Positions 1,826 to 10,127 of a stretch of DNA of 14,795 nt are shown piece by piece. The position numbers and the translations under genes are program-made. The notes beneath the pieces were generated by a model. The model had not been told where the DNA came from. It did no database searches and worked only from the letters and a program-made list of their open reading frames with translations. The DNA lies in NCBI GenBank assembly GCA_048939765.1, contig JBHLPF010000011.1, positions 1 through 14,795 of the forward strand, in the 5' to 3' direction. The DNA is from Promethearchaeota archaeon (GTDB lineage Archaea > Asgardarchaeota > Thorarchaeia > Thorarchaeales > Thorarchaeaceae). Position 1 is the first letter of the stretch. Each line of letters opens with the position of its first letter.

Positions 1826-2959
1826 ATGAAACTTAGAAGGACTGAGAAAGAAACAGCCAAGCAATTCGACTTCCCGGCACCAATGTACTTCATCGCCAAG
1901 TTGGTTCATCAATTTCCTACAATGGCCAATTTGATGAACAAGACAGAGTCACTCATCCTCAAAAGGCAGATTGCAGATTATGCAATTGACCGTCCAATTT
2001 ATGTGACTGGGATGGCCCGGGCAGGAACAACTATTACACTGGAGATGCTGAGTCAGCATCCCAGCGTCGCAACTCATCGATATCTACACATGGTCCTACC
2101 CTATACCCCCCACTTCATCCAATTGGCGGCAAACGTGCTCCCCCTTATGAAGTCGCCAGTCGAACGCCTACACAAAGACCGACTTCTAGTCACTCGCGAT
2201 AGTCCTGAAGCGGTGGAGGAAATAATCTGGCAGAGATTCTTCAGCAGCATCGTGGATGAATCCCAGTCAAATATCCTCGATTCGACGACTAGTAATCCAG
2301 ATTTCGAGATGTTCTACATGGAGCATCTTCGGAAACTGCTTTTCAACCAGAACGCGACTCGATACGCGGCAAAGAACAACTACAACGCTTCTCGAATGGA
2401 ATATTTGCAGAAGATGTTTCCTGATGTTCGATTCGTTGTTGTGATTCGCAATCCATTTGACCACATAGCCTCACTTGCTAAACAGGACATAATCTTGAGG
2501 AGTTTCGAGAGTGCCGATCCTCGACTTCTTGACTGGACTAAGATCATTGGACACAGGGAGTTCGGTTCCGCGAAAATATGCATTAATTTTGGAAACTCCA
2601 AAACTGTGGAGATGATTCGAAATCTCTGGTCGAGTCCAGGAACATATGCGCAGGGCTGGGCTGTCTATTGGAATGAGGTATACTCATACTTATTCGAAAA
2701 ATTAGATTCGAATCCAAATCTCGCTGATGCTACCATTGTAGTTCGTTATGAAGACTTGTGCGAATTCCCTGAGAAGACAGTCGATGCGATTGTTCAGCAC
2801 GTAGAGATTGACCCTGAGAGCTTCCGTCCAATCAAGGAATACTACAGCTCTCGTCTTACTATGCCCACGTACTACAGGACAGAGTACACCGAGCAAGAAC
2901 AGCAAGATATCCTCCGAGAAACTGAGGAAACTGCTAGTAGATTTGGCTATTCGCTCTGA
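1826..2959 (+). CDS. PAPS-dependent sulfotransferase (Sulfotransfer_3 / P-loop sulfotransferase family), cytoplasmic
   Basis: 5'-PSB motif PIYVTGMARAGTT, PEAVEE, AKNNYN, 3'-PB motif VIRNPFDHIAS and the VRYEDLCEFPE motif. No signal peptide or TM helix. Confidence 0.9.
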   Translation: MKLRRTEKETAKQFDFPAPMYFIAKLVHQFPTMANLMNKTESLILKRQIADYAIDRPIYVTGMARAGTTITLEMLSQHPSVATHRYLHMVLPYTPHFIQLAANVLPLMKSPVERLHKDRLLVTRDSPEAVEEIIWQRFFSSIVDESQSNILDSTTSNPDFEMFYMEHLRKLLFNQNATRYAAKNNYNASRMEYLQKMFPDVRFVVVIRNPFDHIASLAKQDIILRSFESADPRLLDWTKIIGHREFGSAKICINFGNSKTVEMIRNLWSSPGTYAQGWAVYWNEVYSYLFEKLDSNPNLADATIVVRYEDLCEFPEKTVDAIVQHVEIDPESFRPIKEYYSSRLTMPTYYRTEYTEQEQQDILRETEETASRFGYSL

Positions 2960-3021
2960 TGCCCACTGGTAGCTCTATGTGAGCTACAGCTTCACAGAAG
3001 ATTATTATCTGAATCCCAAGG

Positions 3022-5118
3022 ATGCCAGAGAACATGAGAAGAAGGGTGAAGGTTCTCATAGGCCTAGCCATCGTGCTTCTGATAACGGTCCCTGCGGTGT
3101 ATCTTGTCTTCAACATACTTCTAACGCCACCTGAGGCTGAACCATTCAGCCTCGATGATGCACCACAGTACATCAGGGATGCACAGGAAGAACTGAAAGC
3201 GAAACTGGAGGGTGAAACTCTCTCTTGGGACGATATGCCCCAGTTTGTTGAATTCTCGCAATACTTGGCAGACTACAGCCCGGAGATTCAAGAGTTAACC
3301 GAGGGGTGGGATGTGACCGTCCTATTTGAGATAGGTGATACAGACTACATGTGGTTCTTCGTTGAGGACGGTTCAATAGACATTCAGATTGGGACCGAAC
3401 CTCCTCAGGACTACGGAATTCGAGTGTCCTTATCATTTGAGACCTTTGCCGATATATTGCAGCAAGATGAGACCCCACTGTCCGCCTTTCAAAAGGGAAC
3501 CCTGCAGTTTGAGGGGCCATTTGGTCAGGTTCTGACAATTGCTCAGATAACCGGGATTGTCAGTGCGACCATAATGGGCACTCATTCTGGGAGTGTAGGA
3601 GGGCCAGAATTCGTGGTCACAGTGAACCAAAGAGACAAGTATTTGGAAGGAGGACTCACTGTATTCTCCCTCTTTGAGGTTACAATCGTTCCAGAATTTC
3701 TTGGACAACACCACATGTCACAAATTGGACCCGGTTCTGTATACATTGTGGACGATTACGGTACGGTAGTTGCACAACTCGAGAGTTCGGCACATACTGT
3801 CACTGAGTTCATTAATTCAACTACGATGATGATGGGCGGGCAGGAGGGTTCTATGCAGCTATGGAACTATGTGACGGATACACTTGAAACTCTGCCAGTG
3901 CCAGCGGGCCATCACGAGATTGAATACAATCCAGCAACTGACACATTCATGGTATTGGAATATGCCCTCTCCGATGAGCAGTGGGACGGTAAGAATGTGA
4001 CGTACGATGTCATCTCAGAATATGATAGAGAGGGCCAATTGGTTTGGCAATGGGATGGTCGAGTATATTTCCCATTCAACTCAACTCGTCATACAAGCCT
4101 AGGACTCAACGAGACGTTCAGGGGCGGTGCAGATTGGATGCACTCCAACAGTTTCGTATGGGATAAGGCAGGTGGTTTCATCTACCTCAACGTTCGCAGT
4201 GTTGACGCCATCCTCAAGATCGATTATACTACCAAAGCCGTTCTGTGGGACGCGGGTCGCAATGGAGAATTCACACTTCTCAACAAGGATGGCATTGAGG
4301 TGGAGTCTCTATTTCATCATCCTCACAGTCTGGAACAGATAAGCAGCAATCGATTCATCATCTATGACAATGACTTGTATAACACATCGAATCCTTCTAC
4401 AATGACTCTGGAGAACTCGACAGGACACTCAAGACTGTTGGAGTTGGAGATTGACGAGACAGCTCGAATTATGAGAGAGGTGTGGTCATGGACTCCTTCC
4501 AATGACTCATACTACTTCCCTGAATCGGGAGGTGATGCGAATCGCCTGCCGAACGGAAATACCCTTGGAACATTCGGAAACAAAGGACTAATCCTCAATG
4601 TTCGTGACCCAGTTATACTGACGGAAGTCACAGCTGAGGGCGAAATTGTATGGGAACTGCAGGTCCCATGCATAAACAATACTTGCTACTGGGTTCAGCG
4701 GGTTGACCGCTTCTACGAAGCCCCCATAATAGAGGTCAATGACTATACACTTGATCTTGACAGTGGCGATTTGTGGCTCAATGTATCAGCTTGGAATTCG
4801 TTCAAGCTGGATGCCAATTCAGCTGCTACAGTGAAGGTGGTTGCAGACGGACAAGAGGTCTATCAGGATTCGTTCGAGTTCCCACGACAATGGCAAGATG
4901 CAAGTGTACAATTTACTGTGAGCGGACTGTCTTCAAGTACGGAATTCATTGAGATAATAGTTGAGAACAGCGATGGGGTTGAGGGCCATTTCACTCTATA
5001 CGATGAGAGAGTCCCCGCACCTCAGTTGAGCTTGCCTCTACTATTAATCATAGGGTCTGTAGCCGTGGCAGTTCCAGTAATTATCTGGTACGCGAGATAT
5101 CGAAGGCTTCTAGCTTAA
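3022..5118 (+). CDS. aryl-sulfate sulfotransferase (ASST/AssT family) fused to an N-terminal SCP2 lipid-binding domain, with N- and C-terminal TM anchors
   Basis: ASST motifs GHHEI, DWMHSNS, LNVRS, FHHPHS, IYDND and GGDANRLPNGNTL. SCP2-like segment at about aa 75-178 (VSLSFETFADILQQDETPLSAFQKGTLQFEG). TM at aa 11-34 after RRRVK, and a C-terminal TM before RYRR. Alternative start at ATG 3034. Confidence 0.88.
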   Translation: MPENMRRRVKVLIGLAIVLLITVPAVYLVFNILLTPPEAEPFSLDDAPQYIRDAQEELKAKLEGETLSWDDMPQFVEFSQYLADYSPEIQELTEGWDVTVLFEIGDTDYMWFFVEDGSIDIQIGTEPPQDYGIRVSLSFETFADILQQDETPLSAFQKGTLQFEGPFGQVLTIAQITGIVSATIMGTHSGSVGGPEFVVTVNQRDKYLEGGLTVFSLFEVTIVPEFLGQHHMSQIGPGSVYIVDDYGTVVAQLESSAHTVTEFINSTTMMMGGQEGSMQLWNYVTDTLETLPVPAGHHEIEYNPATDTFMVLEYALSDEQWDGKNVTYDVISEYDREGQLVWQWDGRVYFPFNSTRHTSLGLNETFRGGADWMHSNSFVWDKAGGFIYLNVRSVDAILKIDYTTKAVLWDAGRNGEFTLLNKDGIEVESLFHHPHSLEQISSNRFIIYDNDLYNTSNPSTMTLENSTGHSRLLELEIDETARIMREVWSWTPSNDSYYFPESGGDANRLPNGNTLGTFGNKGLILNVRDPVILTEVTAEGEIVWELQVPCINNTCYWVQRVDRFYEAPIIEVNDYTLDLDSGDLWLNVSAWNSFKLDANSAATVKVVADGQEVYQDSFEFPRQWQDASVQFTVSGLSSSTEFIEIIVENSDGVEGHFTLYDERVPAPQLSLPLLLIIGSVAVAVPVIIWYARYRRLLA

Positions 5119-6931: not shown

Positions 6932-7327
6932 TCAACCCAGGTTGCTTAATCTGAACCAGTGTTCAATGAAGAGAATACCAAGCAGAAGGTCACCTGCAAC
7001 GAAAGCAAGTACCAAGATGGATGCCTCTCCGATTATGAAGTAGAAGAAGCCCACGACAAAGATCATGACTTTCTCGAATATCACAACGGGAATGAATCTC
7101 TGGCTGACCTCGAAGTTGATGCTGATGACATAGAGAAGTAGGCCCACCACGAATACCAACAGGAAGAAAGAGTCGGCCCATAGCATTGTCGGGGGAGGAG
7201 GCACATCACCTGCTAGGGAGAAATAGGCAATATCAATTCTAGGCAACACTGCAAAAGAGATGGCCAGTATCATGTTCCAGAAGGCTGCTAGTTTGAACAA
7301 CAGACTGTGATATCGTTCTCTATCCAT
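6932..7327 (-). CDS. small integral membrane protein (about 4 TM), function unknown
   Basis: Four hydrophobic segments with buried EK and GD motifs. ATG 7327 is preceded by an AGGTG RBS. The longer start at 7432 overlaps the divergent gene. Confidence 0.8.
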   Translation of the reverse strand: MDRERYHSLLFKLAAFWNMILAISFAVLPRIDIAYFSLAGDVPPPPTMLWADSFFLLVFVVGLLLYVISINFEVSQRFIPVVIFEKVMIFVVGFFYFIIGEASILVLAFVAGDLLLGILFIEHWFRLSNLG

Positions 7328-7426
7328 GAAATCTGCACCTTTGCAGCTTCTGCAGGAATCGTGCATATAACTCCGACGACTCCAATGAAGGAAGTTCCTA
7401 TATGGAGAGGTACGTCTTGGCTCAGT

Positions 7427-8581
7427 ATGCAAACCAAACCTAATTACACTGGTCGGGGAATCACGAACCTGATGAGCTCTATTGCATCAGCCGTTGGGAC
7501 AGAGAGCCCATATCCTGAGCTAGCGGAAACATGGCTATCGGGAATAGAAGAATTTGGGAATATAGTTCTGATGGCAGTTGATGGTTTGGGGTACGACTAC
7601 CTGAAGAAGCATGGAAGAGGCACGTTACTTGCATCATCAATGAAAGGTTCGCTCACTTCGGTGTTTCCACCATCGACGGGTTCTGCGATAACGACCTTCA
7701 TCACAGGATTGCCGCCGCAACAGCACGCTGTGACGGGATGGCATGTTTTTCTGAAAGAATACGGAATAATGTCACGTATTCTGCCCTTCACCAGCGTTGT
7801 AGACTGGAATGTGATAGGCACAGACATTGCCAATGTGGTCAATGTTGAATCACTCTTCTGGGAGATAGAGCGTGAGCGCATTGTGGTAGCAGGAAAACAG
7901 ATTGTCGACTCGACTTTCTCCCTATACACAATAGGCCCGTCAGCAAAGAGAGTCGGATACGAAGGACTTCAGAACTTCTTTGAGAGTGTCGAGGAGGCAA
8001 TTTCGTCAGATGAAAATGCGAGCTATATCTACTCATATTGGCCAGAGCTCGACTCAATCGCTCACATTCTTGGGATAGAGAGCGCTGATGCACGTGAACA
8101 TCTGAAATCCTTTGACCAAGCTCTCATGGAATTCGTTGAAAGAATTGAAGGAACTGATACTGCACTCATTATCACGAGCGATCATGGCTTGCATGATGTA
8201 GAGCCCGAGGGTCTTATCAAGACTGGTGATCACCCTGACCTGATGGAGTCCCTTACACTCCCCCTATGTGGTGATACTCGGTCTGCTTACTGTTATGTGA
8301 GACCTTCAAGAATCAGAGAATTCGAAGAGTATATCGAATCTGCGCTAAGTCATGCCTGCTCTGTCCACAAGAGTGAGGATTTGGTCAACGACAATTGGTT
8401 TGGCCTCTACGAGGAAAATCCAAGGCTATCTGGTCGAGTCGGAGATTATACGTTGATCTTTAACGATGGGTATGCGGTTCTAAATAGCTTCCCAGGACAA
8501 GAACCTCCATCGCTTATAGGACATCATGGAGGCACATCCAGTGAGGAGATGAATGTTCCACTCATACTTATCACCTGTTGA
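7427..8581 (+). CDS. alkaline phosphatase superfamily protein (type I phosphodiesterase / nucleotide pyrophosphatase)
   Basis: VDGLGY, TSVFPPST...ITG.PP.QH, YWPELDSIAH, ITSDHG and GHHGG.S.EEM.VP metal-binding and nucleophile motifs. Start trimmed to MQTKPNY. Confidence 0.92.
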   Translation: MQTKPNYTGRGITNLMSSIASAVGTESPYPELAETWLSGIEEFGNIVLMAVDGLGYDYLKKHGRGTLLASSMKGSLTSVFPPSTGSAITTFITGLPPQQHAVTGWHVFLKEYGIMSRILPFTSVVDWNVIGTDIANVVNVESLFWEIERERIVVAGKQIVDSTFSLYTIGPSAKRVGYEGLQNFFESVEEAISSDENASYIYSYWPELDSIAHILGIESADAREHLKSFDQALMEFVERIEGTDTALIITSDHGLHDVEPEGLIKTGDHPDLMESLTLPLCGDTRSAYCYVRPSRIREFEEYIESALSHACSVHKSEDLVNDNWFGLYEENPRLSGRVGDYTLIFNDGYAVLNSFPGQEPPSLIGHHGGTSSEEMNVPLILITC

Positions 8582-9852: not shown

Positions 9853-9966
9853 TTAGGATTGTGCCATATAGTACCTCCAGAACGTTTCCAATTCTGATAC
9901 ATCTATGCCATGTCGTTGCGTTTCATTCTTCTTTTTGGAGGCATCCTTCTTGGAAACTAGATTCAT
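9853..9966 (-). CDS. putative small protein (37 aa; 39 aa from TTG 9972), not in the ORF track
   Basis: MNLVSKKDASKKKNETQRHGIDVSELETFWRYYMAQS*. Strong GAGGAGGT RBS at 9988-9981, 8 nt before the in-frame TTG 9972. Confidence 0.5.
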   Translation of the reverse strand: MNLVSKKDASKKKNETQRHGIDVSELETFWRYYMAQS

Positions 9967-10127
9967 GCACAATTTAGCTGACCTCCTCGACCTGACTATC
10001 GTGCTAGTTGATAGAAGTCATCCCTAGTGACCTGAGCCTCTGCAGAAGCAGCATTATGCCTTTCCGGCTACGCCATGTGAAAATGCACATAAGCGCCGCG
10101 ATGACTATGAAAGAGCGGAGAGGACCG

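Follow-up and report, generated by a model that had tools for sequence, protein, structure and literature searches.

The window analysed here, the whole stretch of 14,795 nucleotides from a Promethearchaeota archaeon, carries two sulfotransferase genes in the same orientation, an open reading frame at 1826-2959 (377 aa, P0001) and a second one at 3022-5118 (698 aa, P0002), with 62 bp between them. All feature coordinates below refer to the plus strand. At 1704-1751, 3' of an upstream surface-protein gene, we read from the sequence a putative terminator-like hairpin (CTCTGGAG...CTCCAGAG) with a T-run at its 3' side, and a new transcription unit probably starts after it. The spacer between the two genes (2960-3021) contains a 7-bp hairpin (2969-2987) and an A/T-rich box (3000-3009), and its letters include no T-run; across five tandem pairs, taken from this genus and g48, the spacers measure 50-74 bp and have no T5 run. 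Co-transcription of the two genes is plausible from these layouts.

The first gene (1826-2959) was assigned to a cytoplasmic PAPS-type sulfotransferase (ST) by Pfam, by its lack of TM segments, by its AF2 model and by Foldseek. The protein matches Sulfotransfer_3 with 75.1 bits (cut-off 27) and Sulfotransfer_1 with 29 bits, and no hydrophobic or TM segment was found by hydropathy. A 5'-phosphosulfate-binding (5'-PSB) loop, GMARAGTT (residues 62-69, 2009-2032), and a 3'-phosphate-binding (3'-PB) motif, RNPFDHIAS (residues 208-216, 2447-2473), were recognized as motifs and by alignment with TPST1; R65, G67, and T69 of the loop and R208, P210, H213, and S216 of the second motif are invariant across 40 ST homologs (alignment A3). 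The AF2 model (pLDDT 91) gave Stf9, Stf1, and TPST1/2 as its best Foldseek matches (E 3e-8 to 1e-5). Mycobacterial Stf1/Stf9 and TPST1/2 are the nearest solved folds and profiles and have both motifs in common with ST, whereas identity is 13-17% and the acceptor-binding parts are not alignable. P0001 is confirmed as a soluble PAPS-type sulfotransferase that has kept both PAPS-binding motifs. Many ST relatives outside our genome set carry an N-terminal extension of at least two (mostly 2-4) TM-like segments without any Pfam domain, which fits with a membrane-bound substrate. A Rosetta-stone search among proteins related to ST returned no fusion with a polyketide synthase (PKS) and one with a methyltransferase. 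A second Sulfotransfer_3 match in the genome, on contig C55, is truncated at the contig start, and no arylsulfotransferase (ASST) comes after it.

The second gene (3022-5118) was assigned by Pfam, AF2, and Foldseek to a surface protein that has two membrane anchors besides its SCP2 and ASST domains. Its AF2 model (pLDDT 90) runs from a TM helix (residues 3-33) through SCP2 (49-185), a propeller (198-565), and a beta-sandwich (569-661) to a second TM helix (671-697). By hydropathy, the N-terminal membrane anchor or signal anchor covers residues 7-37 (3040-3132) and the C-terminal membrane anchor covers residues 664-693 (5011-5100), the latter followed by RYRRLLA. The SCP2 lipid-binding domain (3166-3576) was identified by Pfam (25.9 bits, cut-off 21.3, residues 80-175), by profile matches to SCP2 structures (E 0.0015-0.05), and by its modelled alpha/beta fold of helices and a five-strand sheet. 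The ASST beta-propeller (3613-4716) matches Pfam Arylsulfotrans (PF05935) with 94.4 bits (cut-off 24.2) over residues 204-549, and the beta-sandwich (4726-5004) was delimited from the AF2 model. In a profile alignment to E. coli AssT (3ELQ), H374, N376, R392, and H435 correspond to His356, Asn358, Arg374, and His436, which are active-site residues listed in PMC13426309. Both ASST family alignments (A1 and A2) show H374, R392, and H435 as invariant; N376 does not vary in A1 and reaches a conservation of at least 90% in A2. Invariant and aligned to AssT His436, His435 (codon 4324-4326) is the predicted sulfo-histidine nucleophile. H297 and H298, candidate equivalents of AssT His252, are also invariant and lie in a stretch that aligns only weakly to 3ELQ.

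From sequence and model, the SCP2 and ASST domains are both predicted to be extracellular, and PAPS is absent from that side of the membrane. The first-pass annotation had described two co-oriented sulfotransferases 62 bp apart, one soluble with intact PAPS-binding motifs and the other an ASST predicted to face outward, and our analysis bears out each of these points: the two reading frames lie as described, GMARAGTT and RNPFDHIAS are present in a protein free of hydrophobic segments, and P0002 has RRRVK before the first anchor, RYRR after the second, its catalytic residues kept, and nine N-x-S/T sequons, all within residues 265-589.

The adjacency of the two genes, whose conservation in relatives had been named as a check, is kept in 22 of the 29 Asgard genomes that carry both ST and SCP2-ASST, and it takes three arrangements. 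The tandem order ST->ASST occurs in 7/7 genomes of this genus, in 6/6 of g48, and in G030 (with a 1-kb gap), the order ASST->ST in G068, and a head-to-head layout in G074, G076, G084 (twice), G087, G094, and G027. The two genes are 4.4 kb apart in G137, with an ASST paralog in between. Genes flanking the pair vary from locus to locus. Within this genus, the 10 genomes without ST are also without an ASST ortholog. The two genes are not linked in genus g5 and in 2/3 of the g12 genomes, and ST is present without an SCP2-ASST ortholog in 59 genomes. A search of five Loki-type genomes for ASST domains of any kind came up empty in three, including two of 100% completeness (G254 and G281); the ST family therefore has a role for which no ASST is required. 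The truncation of the ASST in the one-contig genome G120 is a run of N and hence uninformative. In metagenomes, about 20 ST/ASST pairs were seen on contigs of equal size, their contexts being judged by size match only.

Gene order in relatives supports a tie between ST and PAPS synthesis. In G371, G383, and G373, ST belongs to a tight sat-cysC-ST operon; the order in G030 is TauE x3-sat-NPP-cysC-cysQ-ST-...-ASST; and in G014, which belongs to this genus, ASST<-ST lies beside ->TauE-sat-cysC-cysQ. Neither sat nor cysC was found in the present assembly, which is 88.5% complete. Contig C83 opens inside the gene located after cysQ in G014, at its residue 24, and a contig of a sister genome (G005:C30) opens inside cysQ, at residue 6. 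Because the breaks here and in the sister genome coincide with the position of the module in the relative, an assembly gap is likelier than gene loss, and loss of PAPS synthesis was rejected as the first explanation, since the contig breaks fall exactly at the sat-cysC-cysQ module. The first-pass annotation had taken a lack of PAPS synthesis to speak against its reading; this assembly does formally lack it, with contig breaks as the best explanation, and the expected link is present in the operons of relatives. Other candidates were discarded. Pfam APS_kinase matched the genome only once (C71, 26 bits), in a KTI12-type protein and not in cysC; the best PAPS_reduct match (C35) is a PUA-PAPS_reduct-ferredoxin protein, those on C64 and C94 are weak, and none is CysD-like. 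The NPP gene of the window (7307-8581) gave no BLAST match to the NPP gene between sat and cysC in relatives and is not its ortholog.

The closest solved relative of P0002 is Cpz4, which ranked first in both the profile search (E 8e-18) and Foldseek (E 2e-23, followed by E. coli AssT with E 6e-15); by profile and fold its structures (9KF4 and 9KF6) are nearest to the ASST domain. The caprazamycin system Cpz6/Cpz8/Cpz4 of Streptomyces sp. MK730-62F2 combines, as does the locus here, genes for a PAPS-dependent ST and for a PAPS-independent ASST, and the carrier that supplies Cpz4 with sulfate is charged by Cpz8, a PAPS enzyme (PMC4257720). In many Asgard lineages the pair co-occurs with a Cpz6-like type III PKS, which is in some cases its neighbour, and the analogy with Cpz8/Cpz4 is closer than the first-pass annotation had proposed. 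Among 400 Asgard genomes, 22 encode a type III PKS, and 18 of these 22 also have SCP2-ASST; the PKS is present in 18/38 SCP2-ASST genomes as compared to about 2 expected by chance, and it adjoins the pair in G084:C102 and G137:C126. However, the pair studied here is archaeal and stands outside an antibiotic cluster, whereas the caprazamycin system is actinobacterial, and P0002 is predicted to be an extracellular protein with an anchor at either end and an SCP2 fusion, while Cpz4 (472 aa) has none of these three features. Unlike in the caprazamycin system, PKS is missing from this genome (a 58-bp relic remains at the syntenic site on C14), from g48 (0/22 genomes, one of them 99% complete), and from g12; pairs without PKS are found in g12 and in most of this genus.

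Extracytoplasmic sulfation requires activated sulfate beyond the membrane, and eukaryotes meet this need with PAPS transporters into the Golgi. To our knowledge, no prokaryotic solution for the supply of extracytoplasmic sulfate has been established. We propose that the two genes may form one conserved module for two-step sulfation at the cell surface. Inside the cell, the soluble ST would take a sulfuryl group from PAPS, which the neighbouring TauE-sat-cysC-cysQ set would make in relatives, and load it onto a carrier that is hydrophobic and either phenolic or enolic; where a lineage has a linked type III PKS, this carrier would probably be an alkyl-pyrone or alkyl-resorcinol. The sulfated carrier would arrive at the outer face of the membrane and be captured there by the SCP2 domain of P0002. 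The Cpz4-like propeller would then accept the sulfuryl group on His435 and hand it to an envelope acceptor, which may be a glycan, a lipid, or a protein tyrosine. In this scheme we infer what the carrier is, that it crosses the membrane, what SCP2 does, which way the sulfuryl group moves, and what accepts it.

That ST and SCP2-ASST are functionally coupled is, in our judgement, highly probable. A trans-membrane sulfuryl relay by the pair is more tentative, although it could well be right, and we hold with a shade more reserve the fuller proposal that Asgard archaea sulfate their surface without a PAPS transporter, by a home-made lipophilic carrier (a polyketide where PKS is present) which an outward Cpz4-like SCP2-ASST discharges to the envelope. 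We counted for the relay the adjacency, co-absence, the link with PAPS genes, ASST chemistry, the likeness to Cpz4, PKS, location, and the ST relatives; we counted against it ST without ASST, the NeuB operon, PKS-less pairs, unlinked cases, the lack of an exporter and of an ST-PKS fusion, and the missing sat/cysC. ASSTs are also able to use environmental aryl sulfates, which counts against the relay, and no conserved flippase or exporter was found. Of the relay reading in the first-pass annotation, the conserved and functionally linked pair stands, while the strict relay is weakened by the ASST-less STs of Loki type and by the PKS-less pairs.

Several other explanations deserve consideration. 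The two enzymes may share a pathway without a relay, each decorating a common envelope glycoconjugate or lipid at its own stage: ST would sulfate a nucleotide- or lipid-linked precursor in the cytoplasm directly from PAPS, and the outer SCP2-ASST would later add or move sulfate on lipid-anchored material with any available aryl sulfate. We consider this unlikely but worth serious attention, as the neighbours of Loki-type STs are glycan genes (UDP-galactopyranose mutase, polysaccharide deacetylase, and hexapeptide transferase) and the G087 operon that contains ST also encodes NeuB and a CMP-sugar synthetase, a setting suggestive of a glycan acceptor. The complete genomes with ST and without any ASST agree with it, as do the further ASST paralogs that cluster around the pair and the presence of GtrA near it in G137. 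However, a shared pathway leaves unexplained why the ASST is so close to Cpz4 and why type III PKS tracks it and even adjoins the pair in two genomes; moreover, sugar sulfates are poor ASST donors according to general knowledge of ASST chemistry and donor lists (PMC13426309). In the simplest case, two unrelated sulfotransferases would be neighbours by accident, and nothing favours this beyond the fact that neighbours can be unrelated. We give it next to no credence, because the adjacency recurs in five Asgard families and in three arrangements, and from this comparison it is not due to chance.

A looser association was also considered, in which SCP2-ASST acts on phenols or aryl sulfates from the environment, to detoxify them or to salvage sulfate, biochemically uncoupled from ST, and travels on a mobile accessory island with other sulfur-metabolism genes. 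The genes are indeed patchy within genera (6/16 in this genus), and ST and ASST of g48, which belongs to another family, are nearer to those of this genome than the copies of same-family genera are, suggesting that they were transferred as one block; bacterial ASSTs, in addition, have no known physiological roles (PMC13426309). We nevertheless find such an island improbable, as exactly these two genes stay adjacent through at least three rearrangements while their flanks change. The genome also encodes a second SCP2-ASST, on contig C5 (47% identity to P0002), which has no ST neighbour, and only one SCP2-ASST subtype is thus tied to ST. Cytosolic sulfotransferases are capable of the reverse reaction with aryl sulfates, and the outer ASST might load sulfuryl groups from environmental aryl sulfates onto a lipophilic carrier that goes back into the cytoplasm, with ST working backwards there from PAP to PAPS and saving ATP. 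This would suit an assembly with neither sat nor cysC, but we judge it very improbable, given that ST shares operons with both genes in relatives and that contig breaks best explain their absence here.

A carrier-mediated relay in Asgard archaea, if true, would be a second solution to surface sulfation besides PAPS transporters, and a small one, needing two or three genes plus those for PAPS. It would amount to a membrane-spanning version of the two-step sulfation of caprazamycin, serving cell-envelope biology; ASSTs would gain a physiological role, and the relay would point to sulfated surface molecules in the archaeal lineage nearest to eukaryotes. Our literature search found no description of an arylsulfotransferase in Asgard archaea, of a sulfotransferase in Thorarchaeota, or of a type III PKS in Asgard archaea.

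Two further systems resemble parts of P0002. E. coli AssT (3ELQ) is likewise an extracytoplasmic beta-propeller with the same conserved set of four residues, whereas its identity to P0002 is about 15% and it is a soluble periplasmic dimer with no SCP2 domain, anchors, or paired PAPS enzyme; the natural substrates of AssT are not known, and neither are most of those of ASSTs in general (PMC13426309). As for the SCP2 domain, SdsA1-type alkylsulfatases are metallo-beta-lactamase-fold hydrolases and not transferases, with a domain order other than that of P0002. They nonetheless carry a C-terminal SCP2-like domain on an enzyme for sulfate esters with a hydrophobic tail, a resemblance only, in which an SCP2-like domain is again joined to a sulfate-ester enzyme.

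The sulfotransferase pair lies in a window covering the first 14.8 kb of contig C78, in an assembly of 3.37 Mb and 88.5% completeness; close homologs are annotated as Thorarchaeota. The first gene (1826-2959, + strand) encodes a 377-aa PAPS-type sulfotransferase (ST) matching the Pfam families Sulfotransfer_3 (75 bits) and Sulfotransfer_1. The first-pass annotation described a soluble enzyme with intact PAPS-binding motifs, and both features hold: the protein has no hydrophobic segment, and the key residues of its two motifs, GMARAGTT (residues 62-69) and RNPFDHIAS (208-216), which match the TPST1 PAPS-binding loops in alignment, are invariant among 40 homologs. Its AF2 model (pLDDT 91) shows a sulfotransferase fold, nearest to the mycobacterial Stf9 and Stf1 and to the TPSTs.

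The second gene (3022-5118, + strand) begins 62 bp downstream, confirming the co-orientation and spacing reported earlier. It encodes a 698-aa protein with SCP2 (residues 80-175) and Arylsulfotrans (residues 204-549) Pfam domains, here SCP2-ASST, and its AF2 model (pLDDT 90) comprises a TM segment (3-33), the SCP2 domain (49-185), a propeller (198-565), a beta-sandwich (569-661), and a second TM segment (671-697). The outward orientation proposed for it agrees with the predicted topology, as both anchors carry positive charges on the cytoplasmic flank and all nine sequons fall within the predicted outside part. In a profile of 20 family members, H374, N376, R392, and H435 align with His356, Asn358, Arg374, and the sulfo-histidine His436 of E. 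coli AssT (active-site residues as listed in PMC13426309); of the four, H374, R392, and H435 do not vary in either family alignment (A1 or A2), nor does N376 in A1; in A2 its conservation is 90% or higher. Among solved structures, the closest is Cpz4, the caprazamycin ASST, rather than AssT (profile E 8e-18 for Cpz4; fold match E 2e-23 for Cpz4 vs 6e-15 for AssT). The ~700-aa architecture occurs Asgard-wide, under the depositors' names Thor, Hod, Hermod, Odin, Loki/Promethearchaeota, Heimdall, and Sif; matches in bacteria begin only near E 1e-9 and have no SCP2 domain.

Conservation of the pair, which the initial reading proposed to test, was borne out in 400 Asgard genomes. ST orthologs are present in 88 genomes and SCP2-ASST orthologs in 38; both genes occur in 29 genomes and are adjacent in 22 of these. 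The tandem ST-to-ASST order is found in all seven genomes of this genus with ST, in six of six genomes of g48, a genus of a different family (spacers of ~57-60 bp), and, with a 1-kb gap, in G030. The order is ASST-to-ST in G068 and head-to-head in G074, G076, G084 (two copies), G087, G094, and G027, and in G137 the genes are 4.4 kb apart with an ASST paralog between them. All-against-all BLAST of eight loci showed that only ST, the ASST group, and PAPS genes recur, with the other neighbours varying. All ten genomes of this genus without ST are also devoid of an ASST ortholog, although these genomes are kin and hence not independent. The two genes are unlinked in genus g5 and in two genomes of genus g12, and about 20 metagenome pairs, from contigs of equal size, some below 9 kb, give only a hint of linkage. 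We consider it very probable that ST and ASST are functionally linked; a literature search found no published description of the pair.

Co-occurrence with sat and cysC was likewise found in relatives. Genus g5 has a tight sat-cysC-ST operon with ST as third gene. On one strand in G030, three TauE genes are followed by sat, an NPP-type phosphodiesterase, cysC, a cysQ-like phosphatase, and ST, then an alpha/beta hydrolase on the other strand and SCP2-ASST. The same PAPS set lies 6 kb from the head-to-head pair in G027. In G014, of this genus, ST and ASST run divergently from TauE-sat-cysC-cysQ and a 309-aa gene for a secreted protein, and cysC abuts ASST in G006 and G126. Within the Thor family, 15 of the 19 genomes with cysC (85 genomes in total) carry ST. 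In family f5, an APS-kinase domain lies inside open frames of 579-586 aa, 11-15 kb from the pair on the same contig (G087:C15:161977-162420, G094:C43:3947-4390, G084:C32:17168-17611); these frames are probably sat-cysC fusions.

A genome without PAPS synthesis had been named as evidence against the original proposal. The genes are indeed absent from the assembly under study, G000, where sat, cysC, cysQ, and cysDN were not found at 88.5% completeness, but the contig breaks suggest a gap. In G014, cysQ precedes a 309-aa gene; contig C83 of G000 (3-857, L053) opens at residue 24 of the ortholog of that gene (76% identity). Contig C30 of the sister genome G005 (1-1744, L052) opens within cysQ, at residue 6 (90% identity), with an ortholog of the same gene next. 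Since two related assemblies break at the same sat-cysC-cysQ module, the likelier explanation is a gap in assembly, not loss of the genes; some feature of the module presumably resists assembly or binning in both genomes.

Where a type III PKS accompanies ST and SCP2-ASST, the set corresponds in make-up to the caprazamycin set Cpz6/Cpz8/Cpz4 (PMC4257720). We searched all 400 genomes for the carrier-making enzyme of that system (PF02797) and found this PKS in only 22, of which 18 are among the 38 with SCP2-ASST (~2 expected). In g5, 7 of 28 genomes have PKS, all seven with ASST; in genus g41, 10 of 25 have it, seven with ASST. On contig C102 of G084 the order is ASST paralog, a 204-aa gene, PKS, SCP2-ASST, and ST, and PKS abuts ST in G137. 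The same search found no PKS in g48 (0/22), g12, most of this genus, or G000, so a polyketide cannot be the universal carrier. G005 has an intact PKS. At the syntenic site on contig C14 of G000, orthologs of its neighbours remain, but of the PKS itself only 58 bp of the 3' end survive as a relic (9961-10018; 83% identity to the G005 PKS, E 1e-10, 16/19 residues); apparently G000 lost or replaced the gene. In G027, a UbiA-family prenyltransferase gene (L033:14470-15366) directly follows ST, overlapping its end by 14 bp, in this one genome only, and a prenylated aromatic compound would be a plausible membrane-bound aryl carrier there.

The best single explanation, which we hold tentatively, is the two-step relay of the first-pass annotation, in which cytoplasmic ST would charge a lipophilic carrier that crosses the membrane, and the outer ASST would discharge the sulfate onto an envelope acceptor. 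This relay accounts for the resemblance to Cpz4 and the association with PKS, and also for the fusion to SCP2 and the predicted outward topology, and conservation of the pair speaks for it as well; we infer the carrier, its passage, and the acceptor. In the main rival, which we rate as less likely, the two enzymes would work on the same envelope molecules independently of each other. What weighs against the relay is that our search turned up no conserved exporter or flippase, and that ST also occurs alone. Fifty-nine genomes, mostly of one Loki-type family, encode ST (43-48% identity) but no ortholog of SCP2-ASST, and three of five ST-only genomes searched have no ASST domain of any kind, two of the three being 100% complete. 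Neighbours of the Loki-type ST include genes for UDP-galactopyranose mutase, polysaccharide deacetylase, hexapeptide transferase, and B12-radical-SAM proteins, and in G087 NeuB and a CMP-sugar synthetase/GT28 fusion are encoded in the same operon as ST. The absence of ASST from complete genomes and these glycan-gene neighbours thus indicate an ASST-independent role of the ST family, probably in glycan work.

Many ST relatives in a library of 1.8 billion proteins have an N-terminal extension with at least two, mostly 2-4, hydrophobic TM-like segments, which fits a membrane-bound substrate without naming which. Such relatives (P0244, P0247, P0248, P0303, P0311, P0318-P0321, and others; E below 1e-75) are 570-630 aa long, and the extension of ~230-260 aa has no Pfam domain. 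One protein, P0234 (738 aa), is an ST-methyltransferase fusion; no ST-PKS fusion akin to the window ST was found.

Co-transcription of ST and ASST is plausible from the local signals. The spacer between them lacks a T5 run in five genomes, but its A/T-rich box might serve as an internal promoter. Downstream of the preceding gene lies a long hairpin and T-run (1704-1751). The product of that gene (579-1685, + strand), directly upstream of ST, is a surface protein, acidic and rich in Asp, that carries a signal peptide and a C-terminal anchor; its counterpart in G005 is 93% identical and in the same position, and PAPS genes take its place in G014.

Several further genes were observed around these loci. 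The ~309-aa secreted protein after cysQ (L048:6653-7582 in G014) has no Pfam domain and resembles both the C-terminal extension of ~1000-1100-aa ASST paralogs and a 559-aa protein beside the pair in G128. Three genomes carry the phosphodiesterase/NPP gene (type I, 459-477 aa) as an insertion separating sat from cysC (L032:4142-5521 in G030, L033:1766-3199 in G027, L049:3349-4743 in G006); the window NPP gene (7307-8581) belongs to a different subfamily. SCP2-ASST of G027 is split by ~0.5 kb (L033:10325-12947, contig C16), with residues 5-91 and 78-695 in different frames 524 bp apart; either pseudogenization or an inserted sequence is possible. G000 itself has a second SCP2-ASST (C5:607-2700, - strand, L003; 697 aa, 47% identical) without an ST neighbour, followed by a gene for a protein with a weak CrtC/lipocalin-like match.
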